Below are positions 53,248-60,555 of a DNA stretch of 64,000 bases, piece by piece. The translations under genes were made by a program, and so were the position numbers. The number at the start of each line of letters is the position of its first letter. The stretch's first letter is position 1. Under the pieces are notes generated by a model. That model saw nothing but the letters and a program-made list of their open reading frames with translations, was not told the DNA's origin and searched no databases. The DNA comes from Alistipes sp. (GTDB taxonomy: Bacteria; Bacteroidota; Bacteroidia; Bacteroidales; Rikenellaceae). The stretch is from positions 36,621 through 100,620 of the forward strand of contig JAZKYX010000029.1 in the NCBI GenBank assembly GCA_045612405.1, written 5' to 3'.

Positions 53248-55824
53248 TTATTCATTTGCCTCTGTTGGAGTTGCATCAGCTACCTCTGGCGATTCAACAA
53301 CAGCCTCAGCAGCCTCACCCTCGGCAACCACTACGTTCTCCGCAACCTCCTCATCTTCGCTAACAGGCACAGCCATCACAGATGCGATAACATCGCCCTC
53401 GCGCAAGTTGATAATCTTTACACCCTGGGTAGCACGACCTGCCAAACGAATCTGATCCACCTTGGTACGGATTGTCACGCCCGAACGGTTGATAATCATC
53501 AAGTCATTCTCGTCGGTCACAGCCTGGATAGATACCAAATCACCTGTCTTCTCGGTAATGTTGATAGTCTTAACACCCTTACCACCACGGTTGGTGATAC
53601 GATACTCGTCCAAATCGGTACGCTTACCATAACCATTCTCAGAAAGAACGAGCACGTCCTGCTTTGAGTCAGGCTCAATGCAAATCATACCTACAACCTC
53701 GTCGCCCTCGTCAAGTTCGATACCTCGAACACCCTGACCTGTACGACCAATAGGACGAACCTTATCCTCGTTGAAGCGGATAGCCTTACCGCCACGTGCC
53801 GCAATCATAATCTCGGCGCTACCGCTGGTAATCTTAGCCTCCAAGAGCTGGTCGCCCTCGCGGATAACGATAGCATTAACACCTGTCTGACGTGGACGTG
53901 AGTACTCCTTGAGCTTAGTCTTCTTCACGATACCCTCACGAGTACACATCACGATGTAGTTATTGTTGATATACTCCTCATCGCCCAAGTTCTTGGTATT
54001 GATGTATGCTCTAACCTTATCATCTGGCTCAATTTGGATAATATTCTGTATTGCGCGTCCCTTAGAAGAACGTGCGCCCTCAGGAATATCGTATACTTTA
54101 AGCCAATAACAACGACCCTTTTCAGTGAAGAATATCATTGTATTGTGCATTGAAGCCACATAGATGTGCTCGATGAAGTCCTCATCACGTGTAGCACTAC
54201 CCTTCACGCCTACACCACCACGGTTCTGAGTGCGATACTCAGCAAGTGGTGTACGCTTGATGTAACCCATATGCGAGATGGTGATAACCATATCATCATC
54301 GGCATAGAAATCCTCTGGGTTGAACTCCTCTGAAGAGTAAACAATCTCAGAACGACGCTCGTCGCCATACTTCTGCTTAATCTCGATAAGCTCATCCTTG
54401 ATAATCTGCATCTGCATATCGTTGCTTGCCAATACATCGTTGAAGTAGTTAATCTTACGCTCCAACTCTGCGTGCTCAGCCTCCAACTTCTCACGCTCCA
54501 AGCCTACGAGCTGACGCAGACGCATATCCACGATAGCCTGAGACTGAATCTCGCTCAAACCAAAACGCTCCTGCAATATCTGCTTAGCAACGTCGGTGCT
54601 ACGTGAAGACTTGATAATCTGTACAATCTCGTCAATGTTGTCCTGAGCGATGAGCAAGCCCTTAACGATGTGCATACGCTCCTGAGCCTTACGCAAGTCG
54701 AAACGTGTGCGGCGAACCACTACATCGTGACGGTGCTCCACGAAATGCTTGATCATATCCTTCAAGTTCAAGAGCATTGGACGGCCATTCACCAAAGCGA
54801 TGTTGTTTACCGCAAATGATGATTGAAGCTCGGTATTCTTGAACAAAGTGTTAAGCACAACATTTGCCGAAGCATCCTTCTTGACGAAAATTACGATACG
54901 CAAACCCTTACGGTCACTTTCGTCGTTGATGTATGAGATACCCTCCAACTTCTTCTCATTAACCATCGTGCCGATTTTCTTAATCATCTCGGCCTTGTTG
55001 ATCATATAAGGAATCTCAGTCACAACGATACACTCACGACCAGAAGGTGTGGTCTCAATCTCGGTACGGGCACGCATAATAACACGACCACGACCTGTCA
55101 AGAGAGCCTGCTTTGCACCCTCATAGCCATAAATCAATGCGCCTGTTGGGAAATCGGGACCCTTGACATATTTGAGCAACTCCTCGCACTCGCACTCAGG
55201 ATTGTCGATATATGCACAGCAAGCATCAACAACCTCGCCCAAGTTGTGGGGAGCCATATTGGTTGCCATACCTACGGCGATACCGCTCGCACCATTGACC
55301 AAAAGCAATGGAATCTTGGTTGGTAACACAGTTGGCTCATCAATTGTATCATCAAAGTTTTTAGTCCAATCGATAGTCTCCTTCTCGATATCGGCCATCA
55401 CCTCGTCGGTAATCTTCTGCATACGGGCCTCGGTATAACGCATAGCCGCAGCTTTATCACCGTCCATAGAACCAAAGTTACCCTGACCCTCAACCAATGG
55501 ATAACGCATAGCCCACTCCTGAGCCATACGAACCATAGCCTCGTAAACCGAGCTATCACCGTGAGGGTGGAACTTACCGAGTACGTCACCGACAATACGG
55601 GCAGACTTACGGGTTGGCTTATCAGAGTAGAGATTAAGCTCGTGACTCATATCATACAAAATACGACGATGCACAGGCTTCAAACCATCACGCACATCAG
55701 GCAACGCACGCGATACGATAACCGACATCGAGTAGTTGATATAAGCAGACTTCATCTCCTGCTCAATATTAATGGGAATAATTCTACCCACCAACTCCTC
55801 TTTCTTTTCTTCTTCGTTCAACAT
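53248..55824 (-). CDS. gyrA: DNA gyrase subunit A
   Basis: [32 protein letters not shown], GyrA-box QNRGGVG. Confidence 0.98.
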
Positions 55825-56272
55825 ATTCTTCTTATTCGAAATTAGCGCTTTTGCGCAACATTTTAATCCAATATATTAATAAACAAAAGTAGTGTTTTTT
55901 TCTCAAATAAGCAATTTTAAGGGTGATTTTTAAGGTCTGTATTAGCTCATATTTTCAAAACTTTGCATTTGCGACCATTTTTGGGCGATTTGAGCGCAAA
56001 AAATATTTTTTACGACAGGGGGTCGGGGAAAAATCATCTTTTTTTGAAATATTTTACTAAAAAAAAGAGAGGTCAGAGTAACAACACCTAACTCCTCTTT
56101 CCAGATATGAAGCACAATAAATACCACACAAATAAAATAGCAGCGATAGAACTACCACGATATAAAAAAGCAGCACCTACCTCGATTAAAGGCAAGCGCT
56201 TGCAATAATTACCAAAATCTATTTTAGACTACTAAGCCATCCAACCCTTATTTGGAGCCTTTACGACCAAAG

Positions 56273-56305
56273 TCCCCCTTTGCCAAAGGGGGATTTAGAG
56301 GGATT
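56273..56305. repeat. REP-like palindrome TCCCCCTTT-GCC-AAAGGGGGA followed by TTTAGAGGGATT
   Basis: Perfect 9-bp inverted repeat in an intergenic region. Confidence 0.55.
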
Positions 56306-56399
56306 GTAAATATGGGTGGTTTACCACCACACTATATTAAGGGTTAAAAAAGAAAGCCCTCCCAAACGAGAAGACCACAACCATCCCAAGCGTGAGACC

Positions 56400-56526
56400 A
56401 ATTTTTCGTCAGAGTGGTGCAGATGTGGTGCTGACATAAAAAAGCCACCGATGGGTAGTACTAAGCGTACGTCCCATTGGTGGCTTTGATTGAAGCGCCG
56501 CAGATGCGCCGCTAGCACGGAAAATT
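56400..56526 (+). ncRNA. Candidate structured RNA (long imperfect hairpin); its core also serves as the CoA-transferase terminator on the minus strand
   Basis: Manual pairing of 56400-56432 with 56494-56526 and 56441-56455 with 56473-56487; six G-U pairs on the + strand. Confidence 0.45.
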
Positions 56527-57841
56527 ACTTGCCCATATAGCTTTTAATATAATGATGATGTGAACCGTAGCGCTCGAACGCAGCACGATCCAACTCCTCC
56601 TGTGCTGATGGGTGAGCAACCGAAATCAAGAGGCGCGCGCGCTCCTGAAGGCTCTTACCATACAAATCTACGGCACCATTCTCAGTTACAAACCAGTGCA
56701 TATGGCTACGAGTTGTAACAACACCTGCACCTGGCATCAACGCATCGCAAATCTTCGATACGCCCTTGTTTGTGATAGATGGCATAGCGATGATAGCCTT
56801 ACCACCCTTCGACATTGAGGCTCCATATACGAAGTCAACCTGACCACCTACGCCAGAGTAGAACTTGCGACCGAGTGAGTCGGCGCAAACCTGACCTGTG
56901 AGGTCAATCTGCAATGCAGAGTTGATAGCTGTAACCTTGTCGTTCTTAGCGATGATGTATGGGTCGTTGGTGTAACCTACGTCCTTCATCAAAACTGCTG
57001 GGTTATCGTCGATGAAGTTGTAAACATCGTTAGAACCCATCAAGAATGTAGATACCATCTTACCCTTATCGATATTCTTTGCCTCGCCGTTGATAACGCC
57101 TGCGCGAACCAATGGCAACACGCCGTCAGCGAACATCTCGGTGTGGATACCCAAGTTCTTGTGACCACCCAACTGTGCCAACACTGCGTTAGGAATAGCA
57201 CCGATACCCATCTGGAGTGTAGCGCCGTCCTCAATCAAAGCAGCACAATGCTTACCGATAGCAACCTCAACCTCGTTAGGAGCTGTGAAGTGAGCCTCCT
57301 CCAATGGCTGGTCGTCCTCAACAAAGAGGTCAATCTTCGACATAGGAATCATAGCATCACCGAACGCACGTGGAACATACTTATTCACCACTGCGATAAC
57401 AGTATCAGCGCACTCAACAGCTGCCAATGTAGCATCAACAGATGTACCGAGTGATACGAAACCATGCTTGTCAGGACGAGACACCTGAATCATAGCCACA
57501 TTACAAGGCACAGCACCGCAACGATACAAACGCTGAGTCTCGCTCAAAAATACTGGAATATAGTCAGCATAACCAGCCTGTGTAGTCTTACGCACGTTAC
57601 CGCCCACGAAGAATGAATCGAGCTGGAATACGCCCTCAAACTCTGGCTCAGAATATGGAGCTGGACCCTCAGTGTGGAGGTGGTGGATATGAACATCCTT
57701 CAACTCACCTGCACGACCGCGCTCGCACATAGCCTTAATCAAGCACTGTGGCGCAGATGCAACAGAACTCAAATGAATGTGATCACCCGACTTGATAACC
57801 TTAACAGCCTCCTCAGCTGTTGTAAATTTTACCTGTGTCAT
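56525..57841 (-). CDS. Acetyl-CoA hydrolase/transferase family (4-hydroxybutyrate CoA-transferase-like)
   Basis: TAEEAVKVIKSGD, GFVSLGTS, LQMGIGAIPNAV, HTEM, SGVGGQVDF, VTENG. Confidence 0.92.
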   Translation of the reverse strand: MTQVKFTTAEEAVKVIKSGDHIHLSSVASAPQCLIKAMCERGRAGELKDVHIHHLHTEGPAPYSEPEFEGVFQLDSFFVGGNVRKTTQAGYADYIPVFLSETQRLYRCGAVPCNVAMIQVSRPDKHGFVSLGTSVDATLAAVECADTVIAVVNKYVPRAFGDAMIPMSKIDLFVEDDQPLEEAHFTAPNEVEVAIGKHCAALIEDGATLQMGIGAIPNAVLAQLGGHKNLGIHTEMFADGVLPLVRAGVINGEAKNIDKGKMVSTFLMGSNDVYNFIDDNPAVLMKDVGYTNDPYIIAKNDKVTAINSALQIDLTGQVCADSLGRKFYSGVGGQVDFVYGASMSKGGKAIIAMPSITNKGVSKICDALMPGAGVVTTRSHMHWFVTENGAVDLYGKSLQERARLLISVAHPSAQEELDRAAFERYGSHHHYIKSYMGK

Positions 57842-57870: not shown

Positions 57871-60555
57871 TTAGTTCTTACGTTTTACCTCAACCTGCTC
57901 GTAACCCTCGACAATATCACCTACACGGATATCGTTGAACGACTCGATGTTAAGACCGCAATCCTGACCGATTGTAACCTCCTTCACATCGTCCTTGAAA
58001 CGACGCAACGAACCGAGCTTACCTGTGTAGATTACGATACCATCACGAATCACACGGATAGGCGTATTGCGCTGCAACTTACCCTCGCGTACGATACAAC
58101 CAGCCACGGTACCAACCTTCGAAATCTTGAAGGTCTCCATAACCTCGATAGAGCAGCAGATAACCTCCTTCATAACAGGCTCCAACATACCCTCGATAGC
58201 GTCCTTGATATCGTTCACCGCATCGTAGATGATAGAGTACAAGCGAATCTCAATCTCCTCCTTCTCGGCAGTCTTACGCGCTGCGGCTGATGGACGTACC
58301 TGGAAACCGACGATGATGGCGTTAGATGCCGTAGCGAGCAACACGTCAGACTCAGAAATCTGACCCACAGCAGCGTGGATAACGTTCACCTGAACACTCT
58401 CCTTCGAGAGCTTAATGAGTGAGCCCGACATAGCCTCAACCGAACCGTCCACGTCACCCTTAACGATGATGTTAAGCTCCTTAAACGAACCGATAGCGAT
58501 ACGGCGACCAATCTCGTCCAACGTGATATGCTTCTGAGTCATAATACCCTGCATACGCTGCAACTGCTCACGCTTGTTGGCAATCTCACGAGCCGAGCGG
58601 TCATCATCCATCACATTAAAGCTATCACCCGCCTGTGGCGCACCGTTCAAACCGAGCACCTGAACAGGAGTTGATGGGCCTGCCTCCAACACCTTCTTAC
58701 CGTTCTCGTCGAACATAGCCTTCACACGACCTGTATATGTACCTGAAAGCAATACATCACCAATGCGCAAAGTACCACTCTGTACCATAATTGTAGCTAC
58801 ATAACCACGACCCTTATCCAAAGTTGACTCGATTACACTACCCTGAGCCTTCTTATTAGGATTTGCCTTCAAATCGAGCATCTCAGCCTCCAACAACACC
58901 TTCTCCAACAATTTATCGAGGTTCATACCCTTCTTTGCCGAGATATCCTGGCTCTGGTACTTACCACCCCACTCCTCAACAAGGTAGTTCATCTGTGCCA
59001 ACTGCTCCTTGATGTGCTCTGGGTTAGCTGCTGGCTTATCAATCTTATTAATAGCGAAGACCATAGGCACACCTGCTGCCTGAGCGTGGTTGATAGCCTC
59101 GACAGTCTGTGGCATAACGTGGTCATCAGCCGACACGATGATAATCGCCACATCGGTAATCTTGGCACCACGCGCACGCATCGCTGTAAAGGCCTCGTGA
59201 CCCGGAGTATCGAGGAAGGTAACCTTCTGACCATTGTAGTTCACCGAGTAAGCACCGATGTGCTGTGTGATACCTCCGGCCTCGCCCTCGATGACGTTGG
59301 TCTTACGGATGTTATCCAACAAAGATGTCTTACCGTGGTCAACGTGACCCATTACGGTTACGATTGGTGGACGAGCAACCAAATCCTCCTCCTTATCTAC
59401 ATCCTCGTCGATAGCTTCTGCAACCTCAACTGTAACGAACTCTGTCTTGAAGCCAAACTCCTCGGCAACCACCACCAAGGCCTCGGCATCCAAACGCTGG
59501 TTGATAGATACCATCAAGCCCAAGTTCATACAAGCCGAGATGACCTCCATAGGTGAAACGTTCATCATTGTAGCGAGCTCGCTAACGGTAACAAACTCTG
59601 TTACCTTCAACACTGAACGCTCCATCTGCTCGCGCTCCATCTCCTCCGACATCTTCTCGCGAATCTCGTCGCGCTTCTCCTTACGATACTTTGCACCCTT
59701 ATTCTTAGCACCCTTTGCAGTCAAACGAGCCAAAGTATCCTTAATCTGCTTTGATACCTCCTCATCGCTTACCTCAGGACGAACAACAGGCTTTGGCTGA
59801 TGCTTCTCCTTCTTCTTATTGCGACGACCCTCGCCCGGCTTAGGCTGGTTCTGCTGGTTATTCTGATTCTGATTGTTCTGAGCTGGCTGACCCTGAGAAG
59901 GCTTATTCTTCTTATCCTTCTTACCGCCATCCTTACCCTGATTCTTACTCACATCAACCTTCTCCTTATCCAGACGCTTGCGCTTGTGCTTACCACCTGG
60001 AATCATACCCGACACATCCATAGTACCCAAAATCTTTGGACCTGCCAACTGATTCTGGCTCGCGCGAGGCTCCTCAACCTCGGGCTTTGGCTCCGGTTTA
60101 GACTCCACCTGAGGCTCTGGCTTAGGTGATGGCTCTTGTTTTGGTTCAGGCTTTGGATCTGGCTTCACTTCGGGAGCCTGCTTCTTTTTAGGGTCGAGAT
60201 CAATCTTACCCAAAATCTTTGGCTGAGGAACCTCATCCTTAATGTTGATGACATTGCTCTTGACAATCACCTCATCATCATCGGCGTTATCCTCCTTCTT
60301 CTGGTCACCGAGTGACACAGTAGCCTGCTTGTTGAGCGAGATACGCTCACGCACGTTATCGCGCTCATTACCTGTTATACTACGATTTGAGCCAAACTCC
60401 TTTTCGAGCATAGCATATACATCGGGACTCACAGGCGAGTTGGGCGACAAATCGGCACCCACACCCTTTTTGAGCAAGAAGTCCGTAATGGAACTAATTC
60501 CCACCTTAAACTCCTTTGCCACTTGAATGAGCCTTATCTTTCTATTATTTGTCAT
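57871..60555 (-). CDS. infB: Translation initiation factor IF-2
   Basis: [24 protein letters not shown]; Pro/Lys/Gln-rich N-terminal linker. Confidence 0.98.

Follow-up and report, generated by a model that had tools for sequence, protein, structure and literature searches.

A long hairpin lies at positions 56400-56526, on the plus strand, of a 64,000-nucleotide (nt) stretch of Alistipes sp. DNA (hereafter, the window), directly behind an acetyl-CoA hydrolase/transferase gene. The first-pass annotation of the window had put it forward as a hidden candidate noncoding RNA or switch, whether an antisense small RNA, an antitoxin-like RNA, or an attenuator. We conclude that the hairpin is almost certainly one of the copies of a dispersed repeat rather than an RNA gene peculiar to the locus. 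The repeat is dispersed and has recently been spreading, and its copies have a fixed orientation, abut stop codons, fold on one strand, and are biased toward leading-strand genes. The explanation that we favor, with some confidence, is that the hairpin belongs to a nonautonomous family of approximately 127 bp in the style of REPINs and attC sites, that it is tolerated as a terminator, and that its antisense DNA strand is the one folded and selected.

On the plus strand, the interval forms a single hairpin in which pairing extends outward to 56400/56526. RNA folding of the plus strand gave -79.3 kcal/mol (z score of -9.6), a value equaled by none of 200 shuffles, and that of the minus strand gave -54.4 kcal/mol (z score of -5.3). 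With DNA parameters, the plus strand again formed the full-length hairpin, at -35.5 kcal/mol; the minus strand, at -27.4 kcal/mol, formed no full hairpin but only local ones, namely, an arm hairpin, the inner stem-loop, and, weakly, a GTCAG/CTGAC closure. The parts of the hairpin are as follows.

56400 to 56526, plus strand: full hairpin of the repeat element, on the well-folding strand that carries the G-U (G-T) pairs, as defined by folds, covariance model match, and paralog boundaries.
56402 to 56524: repeated unit proper, flanked by AA (56400-01) and TT (56525-26), as defined by comparison of near-identical paralogs.
56400 to 56409, plus strand: 5' strand of the 10-bp basal stem, AATTTTTCGT, with its partner ACGGAAAATT at 56517-56526.
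56410 to 56412, plus strand: conserved CAG, one side of a 3x3 internal loop whose facing side (56514-56516) is AGC here and ATC in the consensus.
56413 to 56432, plus strand: left arm, with 9-bp helices at 56413-21 and 56424-32 around a tandem G-A at 56422-23 and with four U-G wobbles.
56494 to 56513, plus strand: right arm, AGCGCCGCA GA TGCGCCGCT, paired with the left arm (56413-21/56505-13 and 56424-32/56494-502).
56441 to 56487, minus strand: inner stem-loop with the highly conserved apex GATGGGTAGTAC..GTACGTCCCATT, as defined by terminator scan and apex conservation.
56438 to 56443, minus strand: T6 tract right after the inner stem, as defined by sequence and terminator scan.
56321 to 56437, minus strand: 38-amino-acid open reading frame (ORF) starting with ATG (MSAPHLHH...NIVWW), the ATG-started part of a 65-amino-acid GTG ORF and no conserved gene.

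Within the arms, GTGGTGC-AGAT-GTGGTGC at 56414-56431 pairs with GCGCCGC-AGAT-GCGCCGC at 56495-56512, and the inner stem comprises 15 bp (56441-56455/56473-56487) with a GTAC/GTAC cap. What the first-pass annotation had said of the sequence, including the arms, the tandem G-A, the inner stem, its cap, and the outer pairing, was borne out throughout. All six G-U pairs, four of them the U-G wobbles of the arms, fall on the plus strand as it had stated, and the competing GTCAG/CTGAC hairpin that it had noticed is present, at 56408-12 and 56431-35. The window copy matched a covariance model of the repeat at 149 bits (E = 2.7e-45). We conclude that the structure is far beyond chance and that its architecture recurs in hundreds of copies with compensatory changes.

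Those copies lie mostly in other genomes. The genome of the window holds a single intact copy, the one described above, and the family is otherwise nearly absent there. BLAST found dozens of copies per genome in 15 of 36 congeneric genomes, numerous ones in tandem or at contig ends, and 0 copies in 24 other families of the order. A covariance model, R1, detected the family in 75 of the 121 genomes searched within the genus and in 3 of the 31 genera of Rikenellaceae, namely, the genus of the window, whose MAGs carry the NCBI label Alistipes sp., and two neighboring genera. Most of the genomes are metagenome-assembled genomes (MAGs) that are 80 to 99% complete, per-genome covariance model counts in large searches are to be read as "at least," and R1 E values are rough. 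Copy number among congeners ranges from 0 to more than 80; in one 98%-complete genome, G127, there were 138 covariance model matches, both strands counted, and the 1.26 Mb examined contained 56 arrays with 84 copies in total. A conserved-apex pattern matched only MAGs from ruminant and human guts, labeled Alistipes sp., Rikenellaceae, or "Bacteroidetes bacterium." Among 182 copies, the median nearest-neighbor identity was 93%, and several pairs at unrelated loci were 97 to 100% identical, indicating that the family spread recently.

Near-identical paralogs also defined the unit ends, TTTCTTGTG...CACAAGAAA; the repeated unit, TTTCTTGTGATAG...CTCTGACAAGAAA, has AA and TT flanks in most copies and no visible direct repeat. 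Head-to-tail tandem arrays are common, successive copies meeting with AAA directly against TTT, and the partial, decayed copies in arrays lie mostly on the side away from the gene. In arrays of two or three copies (e.g., L008 1199-1632, at G015:C5 ~67040-67470), tandem neighbors often belong to distinct subfamilies, a pattern suggestive of insertions recurring at one junction and not of slippage. A short GGTGGCGCTGATATG tandem repeat stands just before one of the arrays. Many copies (e.g., L028, L027, and L009) are followed by a tail of ~16 to 20 nt, GGGTTGTGGTGCTAAT-like, that resembles the degenerate start of another copy and that may be a footprint of the insertion mechanism or the remnant of a deleted tandem copy. 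In two species, a 129-nt copy that is 100% identical (L024 and L145) stands behind orthologous genes whose 3' ends have visibly diverged by eye (...GGC TAA versus ...TTG TAA), which suggests either that this gene end received the element more than once or that the copy passed from one species to the other.

Homologs, the collection of which the first-pass annotation had proposed as a check, were thus plentiful, and their helices covaried. RNAalifold analysis of alignment A1 (42 full-length copies) gave 41 pairs, 30 of them with compensatory double changes. On the structure outlined above, 95.6% of the cells in A1 were paired, versus 79.8% in shuffles, and the covariation score was 0.452, a value that 0 of 500 shuffles reached, versus 0.167 when shuffled; structures slid by 1 to 3 columns scored at most 0.077. 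Six of the eight pairs of the basal stem (helix 1) were changed on both sides across the family, the middle three covarying strongly. The loops, by comparison, are conserved while the helices vary: this holds for the internal loop CAG/ATC, the GA/GA, and the apex GATGGGTAGTAC...GTACGTCCCATT, and within the CAG in A1, the A (A17) and the G (G18) never vary and the C (C16) is kept at 90% or more.

The fold is also strand specific, as the first-pass annotation had supposed from the window copy. A1 contained G-U in 175 cells and A-C in 20, and one inner-stem G-U was kept in 39 of 42 copies. Folding was better on the element strand for 159 of 183 full copies, with a median difference of -14.5 kcal/mol, and this was true in every divergence class. 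Relative to the upstream gene, the strand that folds well is invariably the antisense one. A sense transcript terminated at the T run would stop before the distal arm, so that pairing between the arms in a sense RNA is not what maintains the covariation. Mutation bias was considered as a source of the G-T excess and rejected: the element strand lies on the C-rich strand, where skew pressure would yield A-C and not G-T, and the asymmetry is therefore no by-product of such a bias.

Copies are placed with high regularity behind genes. With ORFs called by a simple rule, an opposite-strand ORF ended at the 3' side of the element for 40 of 41 scorable first copies, and 33 of these ORFs overlapped the element end. 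Where copies abut the stop of an opposite-strand gene, the family junction is TAA followed directly by TTTNTTGTGATAG, which on the sense strand of the gene reads NNN TAA TTT NTT GTGATAG. The stop fell exactly at the boundary of TAA and TTT in 65 of 150 anchored copies, 1 to 3 bases further upstream in 22, and inside GTGATAG, as TGA or TAG, in 10. Terminal bases of the element still pair where flanks differ, and thus they behave as a stem and not as a target duplication; moreover, only 20% of copies have an A next after AAATT, and direct repeats are lacking. The genes that precede copies are housekeeping genes (dnaN, dnaA, rnc, radA, ychF, fba, aspS, efp, prfC, and proS), and infB and guaA were read by eye as upstream genes at other loci.

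On the sense strand of those genes, the element resembles an intrinsic terminator, that is, a G+C-rich stem-loop followed by a T run, and the window copy has these features (T6). The minus-strand core and its U6 had been called a terminator in the first-pass annotation, and a consensus scan called a minus-strand terminator-like site for the transferase gene within the inner stem, followed by CTTTTTT. At least five T's stand at this place in 98 of 183 copies. The stem contains a conserved A-C mismatch, the complement of the G-U kept in 39 of 42 copies. Judged by these sequence features, the element probably acts as a terminator on the sense strand of the gene.

At the locus in the window, all surrounding genes are on the minus strand, and the neighborhood of the hairpin is as follows.

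56525 to 57841, minus strand: acetyl-CoA hydrolase/transferase gene, with a TAA stop at 56525-56527, the two A's of which form the outermost hairpin pairs.
57871 to 60555, minus strand: infB, a neighboring gene.
56377 to 56399, minus strand: tail of ~23 nt between the element and the native terminator, GGTCTCACGCTTGGGATGGTTGT in the sense direction, as defined by sequence comparison.
56355 to 56376, minus strand: native intrinsic-terminator-like hairpin of the transferase gene, also found in empty-site species.
53248 to 55824, minus strand: gyrA, 700 nt further on.

The orthologous transferase gene was found in 19 species of the genus, and only two, that of the window (G000) and G012, carry the element behind it. 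The site is empty in the species with the closest transferases, G002 (95% protein identity) and G006 (94%). A native terminator lies 24 to 35 nt after the transferase stop in every species, and its retention downstream of the hairpin marks the element as an addition. Furthermore, the element is 97% identical between G000 and G012 and the adjacent gene end is 77% identical, so the window copy is a recent addition, brought in by insertion or else through recombination with a donor resembling G012. The tail at 56377-56399 is common, at the transferase locus, only to the other element-bearing species, and similar GGGT..GGTGCTAAT tails occur behind many copies at other loci; from this sequence comparison, the tail is probably part of the inserted DNA. 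Two other small structures were seen nearby. An unrelated small hairpin repeat, ACATTCCCCCTAAATCCCCCTTTGNCAAAGGGGGA, at 56262-56300 (minus-strand sense) occurs three times in the genome (also on contigs C5 and C26), and behind the transferase of some nine other species of the genus, the interval from the native terminator to gyrA holds a similar CCCCC...GGGGG hairpin. At 56311-56345, just past the native terminator, the motif TTAATATAGTG(G/T)TGGTG and then a short hairpin, GGTGGTAAACCACC, are found in about ten species, and this could be the upstream region of gyrA or a longer conserved intergenic element.

A further regularity concerns replication. In G127, the sign of whole-contig GC skew (single 20-kb pieces being too noisy) predicted the strand of the element on 5 of 5 contigs: copies were on the plus strand on the negative-skew contigs (21/21 on C13 and 12/12 on C6) and on the minus strand on the positive-skew contigs (21/25 on C10, 8/8 on C12, and 15/18 on C4). 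With arrays treated as independent, 51 of 56 stand behind genes of the G-rich (leading) strand, and all genes are split 486:480 (p = 1e-10). Four of the five exceptional arrays adjoin a lagging-strand gene in the usual gene-coupled orientation, all at convergent pairs, and the fifth has no adjacent gene in that orientation. The bias was replicated on 98 loci from other genomes by the sense-strand skew of genes not adjoining the element (p = 5e-19). Genes codirectional with the upstream gene averaged +0.065 and those on the element strand averaged -0.008, a contrast that matches the leading and lagging gene skews in G127 (0.072 versus 0.017). The contig of the window, C29, has a skew of -0.095 with the element on the plus strand, which puts the well-folding strand on the C-rich strand, the leading-strand template. 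In G127, dnaA and dnaN are each followed by a tandem element pair (C6:111995-112312 and C13:151756-152011), and because GC skew keeps its sign at dnaA on that contig, oriC may lie elsewhere than beside dnaA in the lineage.

One way in which these regularities could arise together is if the family spread, now or once, via folded single-stranded DNA (ssDNA) of the antisense strand, as in REPINs and attC sites. Insertion would occur at AA^TT without visible target duplication, and copies would last where they are least harmful, between a stop codon and the native terminator. The orientation relative to the gene would be retained because, with it, the mRNA acquires a terminator from the sense strand instead of a long duplex. 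Copies would persist with the strong-folding strand on the leading-strand template, where it is rarely single stranded, and the replication bias could reflect strand-specific insertion or the loss of copies with that strand on the lagging-strand template. Experiments on chromosomal integrons have demonstrated the logic of such loss (PMC5371416). Our own reading of the analysis is that selection acts on a folded ssDNA form that serves mobility, and we rate this a little short of an even chance.

Several results weigh against this explanation, among them the search for an enzyme. The Y1/RAYT transposase (PF01797) was detected in 2 of the 121 genomes searched within the genus, and none of the most copy-rich ones has it, with controls positive; one of the two genomes that have it has no copies. 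The integron integrase (TIGR02249) exceeded the curated cutoff in 0 of 121 genomes, which gave only generic tyrosine-recombinase cross-matches. Reverse transcriptase, considered for retro-copying because a cDNA of the sense transcript would be the G-T strand, was rejected since, although 44 of 121 genomes have it, its occurrence does not follow that of the element: copy-rich G012, G013, and G010 are without it, and element-free G004, G023, and G024 have one. No autonomous parent, with element halves kilobases apart, was found in the 1.26 Mb of G127, and no copies were found on phages, plasmids, or IMG/VR viral contigs. A candidate gene lying between two inward-facing copies was, by eye, an ordinary 182-amino-acid ORF, GNAT-like, between guaA and an acyl-CoA ligase gene. 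A trans-acting gene may be missing from the assemblies because MAG bins often lack mobile elements.

Other points against the explanation concern insertion and polarity. No exact pair of empty and filled sites was found between near-identical strains, and insertion at AA^TT without duplication thus relies on paralog boundaries and one diverged empty site. Leading and lagging strands were assigned by GC skew alone, and the polarity is opposite to that of IS200/IS605, whose active strand lies on the lagging-strand template. A last point concerns stop abutment. Among AATT sites in G127 3' intergenic regions that hold no element, 5.9% overlap with a TAA stop, versus 43% observed for the copies (p = 2e-39), but with tolerance limited to the first 20 to 40 nt after the stop, the expectation rises to 22 to 33%. 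A preference for AA^TT combined with selection against insertions further downstream therefore explains most, but not all, of the abutment, and a mechanism directed to stops is largely unneeded.

A more specific form of the ssDNA explanation, which we consider unlikely, is a previously unrecognized class of hairpin mobile DNA: an attC-like site outside any integron, moved by an enzyme other than a Y1 HUH transposase, a reverse transcriptase, or an integron integrase. The conserved-loop hairpin of the antisense strand would be the recombination substrate and would be inserted, with no duplication of the target, at the first AA^TT behind stop codons, and elements would survive, or insert, almost only behind leading-strand genes. 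The mover could be a host Xer-type recombinase or the product of a mobile-element gene missing from MAG bins.

The next alternative is that the G-U strand is transcribed and functions as a structured RNA, either cis-antisense over gene 3' ends or protein binding, with the regularities at the DNA level being secondary. Conserved loops, covarying helices, a nearly invariant apex, and a large excess of G-U over A-C are the classical signature of a structured RNA and speak for this possibility. A sigma-70-type scan of 55700-57000, however, found no promoter-like site, in line with the first-pass annotation, which had seen no canonical plus-strand -7 box upstream; Bacteroidota promoters lie outside that type of scan, which may miss them. 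Rfam 15 covariance models, searched against 55800-56900 at E values up to 10, matched no family and returned only chance-level matches, the best at an E value of 0.14 and far below the gathering score. Moreover, sequences upstream of the element show no relationship from one locus to another, head-to-tail arrays and decayed partial copies are what mobile DNA typically displays, and a 10-fold preference for leading-strand genes would not be expected of a functional RNA. We regard such an RNA as rather unlikely.

Alternatively, the repeat could be a REPIN or a palindromic miniature inverted-repeat transposable element derived from IS200/IS605 (PATE), moved in trans by a Y1 HUH transposase (RAYT or TnpA). 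The two inverted arms, each with a small palindrome (GTCAG...CTGAC), form one long hairpin as REPINs do (PMC3116915), the left arm of the window copy having its own GTCAG/CTGAC closure. There is no visible target duplication, and the strong replication-strand bias is like that of single-strand transposition (PMC5027513). In some copies, that of the window included, CGTC precedes the arm (PMC3733652). As for the conserved GTAG or CGTC tag expected at the foot of each REP, GTCAG is nearly invariant, and CGTC precedes it only where the covarying basal stem ends in C, as in the window copy. Against such an origin stand the near absence of PF01797 described above, an orientation that, unlike that of REPINs, is fixed to the neighboring gene, and a better-folding strand that is on the leading-strand and not the lagging-strand template. 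We consider this origin improbable.

Host terminators kept alike by gene conversion and selection would need no transposition, and the outer arms would then have a host function such as insulation or nucleoid structure. The terminator-like sense-strand module in most copies, the housekeeping nature of the upstream genes, and the lack of a transposase among the genes found are all consistent with this idea. It is, however, difficult to reconcile with presence at orthologous sites that ignores relatedness (G000 and G012 being filled and the closer G002 and G006 empty), with a native terminator that still lies downstream, with paralogs of 97 to 100% identity at unrelated loci, with tandem arrays of different subfamilies, and with copy numbers of 0 to more than 80 among congeners. 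We judge it quite improbable.

Integron-type attC sites, the folded bottom strands of which are substrates of the integron integrase, would account for an imperfect hairpin of attC size right after an ORF, for a folding strand that is antisense to the ORF, and for the position of that strand on the leading-strand template, where sedentary chromosomal integrons have it too (PMC5371416). Three defining features contradict them, though, as the integrase exceeded its cutoff in 0 of 121 genomes, the R'' RYYYAAC and R' GTTRRRY core sites were found in 0 of 183 copies, that of the window included, and there are no cassette arrays. Copies are instead scattered behind core genes such as dnaA, dnaN, aspS, and efp, making true attC sites very improbable.

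An attenuator or switch specific to the locus, or a toxin-antitoxin-like pairing that involves the 38-amino-acid ORF, is scarcely credible. The alternative local hairpins (GTCAG/CTGAC) and an ORF start within the stem could be cited in its favor, but the element stands behind dozens of unrelated housekeeping genes, a distribution that contradicts this idea, has no Rfam match, and is missing at this locus from the closest relatives. The ORF itself exists as the first-pass annotation had it, but its standing as a gene is unsupported, as its ATG is kept in 57 of 183 copies, ORF length varies from 2 to 147 amino acids, and copies share no more than the ~12 initial residues that the arm encodes. 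The suggestion in the same annotation that the hairpin might derive from a mobile element fits the data, in that it is part of a mobile-looking repeat.

For the locus in the window, what had looked like a hidden noncoding RNA is thus a repeat copy newly added between a gene and the gene's own terminator. More broadly, four properties were not found together in the literature searched: an orientation fixed to the gene, a near-exact abutment of the stop, a G-T asymmetry throughout the family, and a 10-fold leading-strand preference. The asymmetry runs against local GC skew, and the preference occurs in genomes without a gene-strand bias. If the folded ssDNA intermediate is real, the family would be a natural system, beyond integrons and IS200/IS605, in which the interplay of hairpin DNA with replication and transcription could be studied. 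There are practical consequences as well: the copies break MAG assemblies, as seen from the many copies at contig ends, and they would add predicted terminators behind core genes in abundant gut and rumen Rikenellaceae.

Among known repeats, ERIC/IRU (127 bp) and YPAL of enterobacteria and the Correia elements of Neisseria are imperfect palindromes in transcribed intergenic regions near gene ends. They are cotranscribed with the gene, affect mRNA ends, and occur in both orientations with a TA target duplication. The Alistipes element is like ERIC/IRU in being an imperfect palindrome of the same size, ~127 bp. Unlike ERIC and Correia elements, it shows no duplication, its orientation is fixed, and its terminal bases covary as a stem; moreover, a search of 5,426 genomes of E. 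coli, a carrier of ERIC, returned no match and thus no similarity to ERIC, REP, or BoxC. Within the Bacteroidetes, HMP2_4205 is a 132-bp palindromic terminator candidate described by Fremin and Bhatt (PMC8040213) that may or may not belong to the same family as the hairpin repeat.

The element shares with IS200/IS605 (PMC5027513) the lack of a visible target duplication, the presence of a hairpin, and a strong orientation bias relative to replication. It differs in that no TnpA Y1 gene accompanies it, in that its better-folding strand is on the leading-strand template (51 of 56 arrays), and in that the whole repeat makes one hairpin from both its ends, unlike the two subterminal hairpins of IS200/IS605.

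REPINs are REP doublets that form hairpins and are associated with RAYT transposases in Pseudomonas and E. coli (PMC3116915; PMC3333891). Like them, the element is noncoding, ~100 to 130 nt in length, and without a gene of its own, its two inverted arms form one long ssDNA or RNA hairpin, and it occurs in tens to hundreds of extragenic copies per genome, sometimes clustered. Unlike REPINs, it is carried by genomes without a RAYT/Y1 gene, its arms are asymmetric with G-T on one strand, and it has no sequence similarity to them; instead of being placed randomly, its copies abut the stop codon in an orientation tied to the upstream gene and are biased toward leading-strand genes.

From attC sites, the element differs in having no integron integrase, R''/R' sites, or cassette array and in lying behind core housekeeping genes chromosome-wide. 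In other respects it resembles them closely (PMC5371416): the hairpin is imperfect and stands immediately after an ORF, sometimes sharing its stop, the antisense strand is the one that folds, loops are conserved while stems covary, and the folding strand is preferentially on the leading-strand template.

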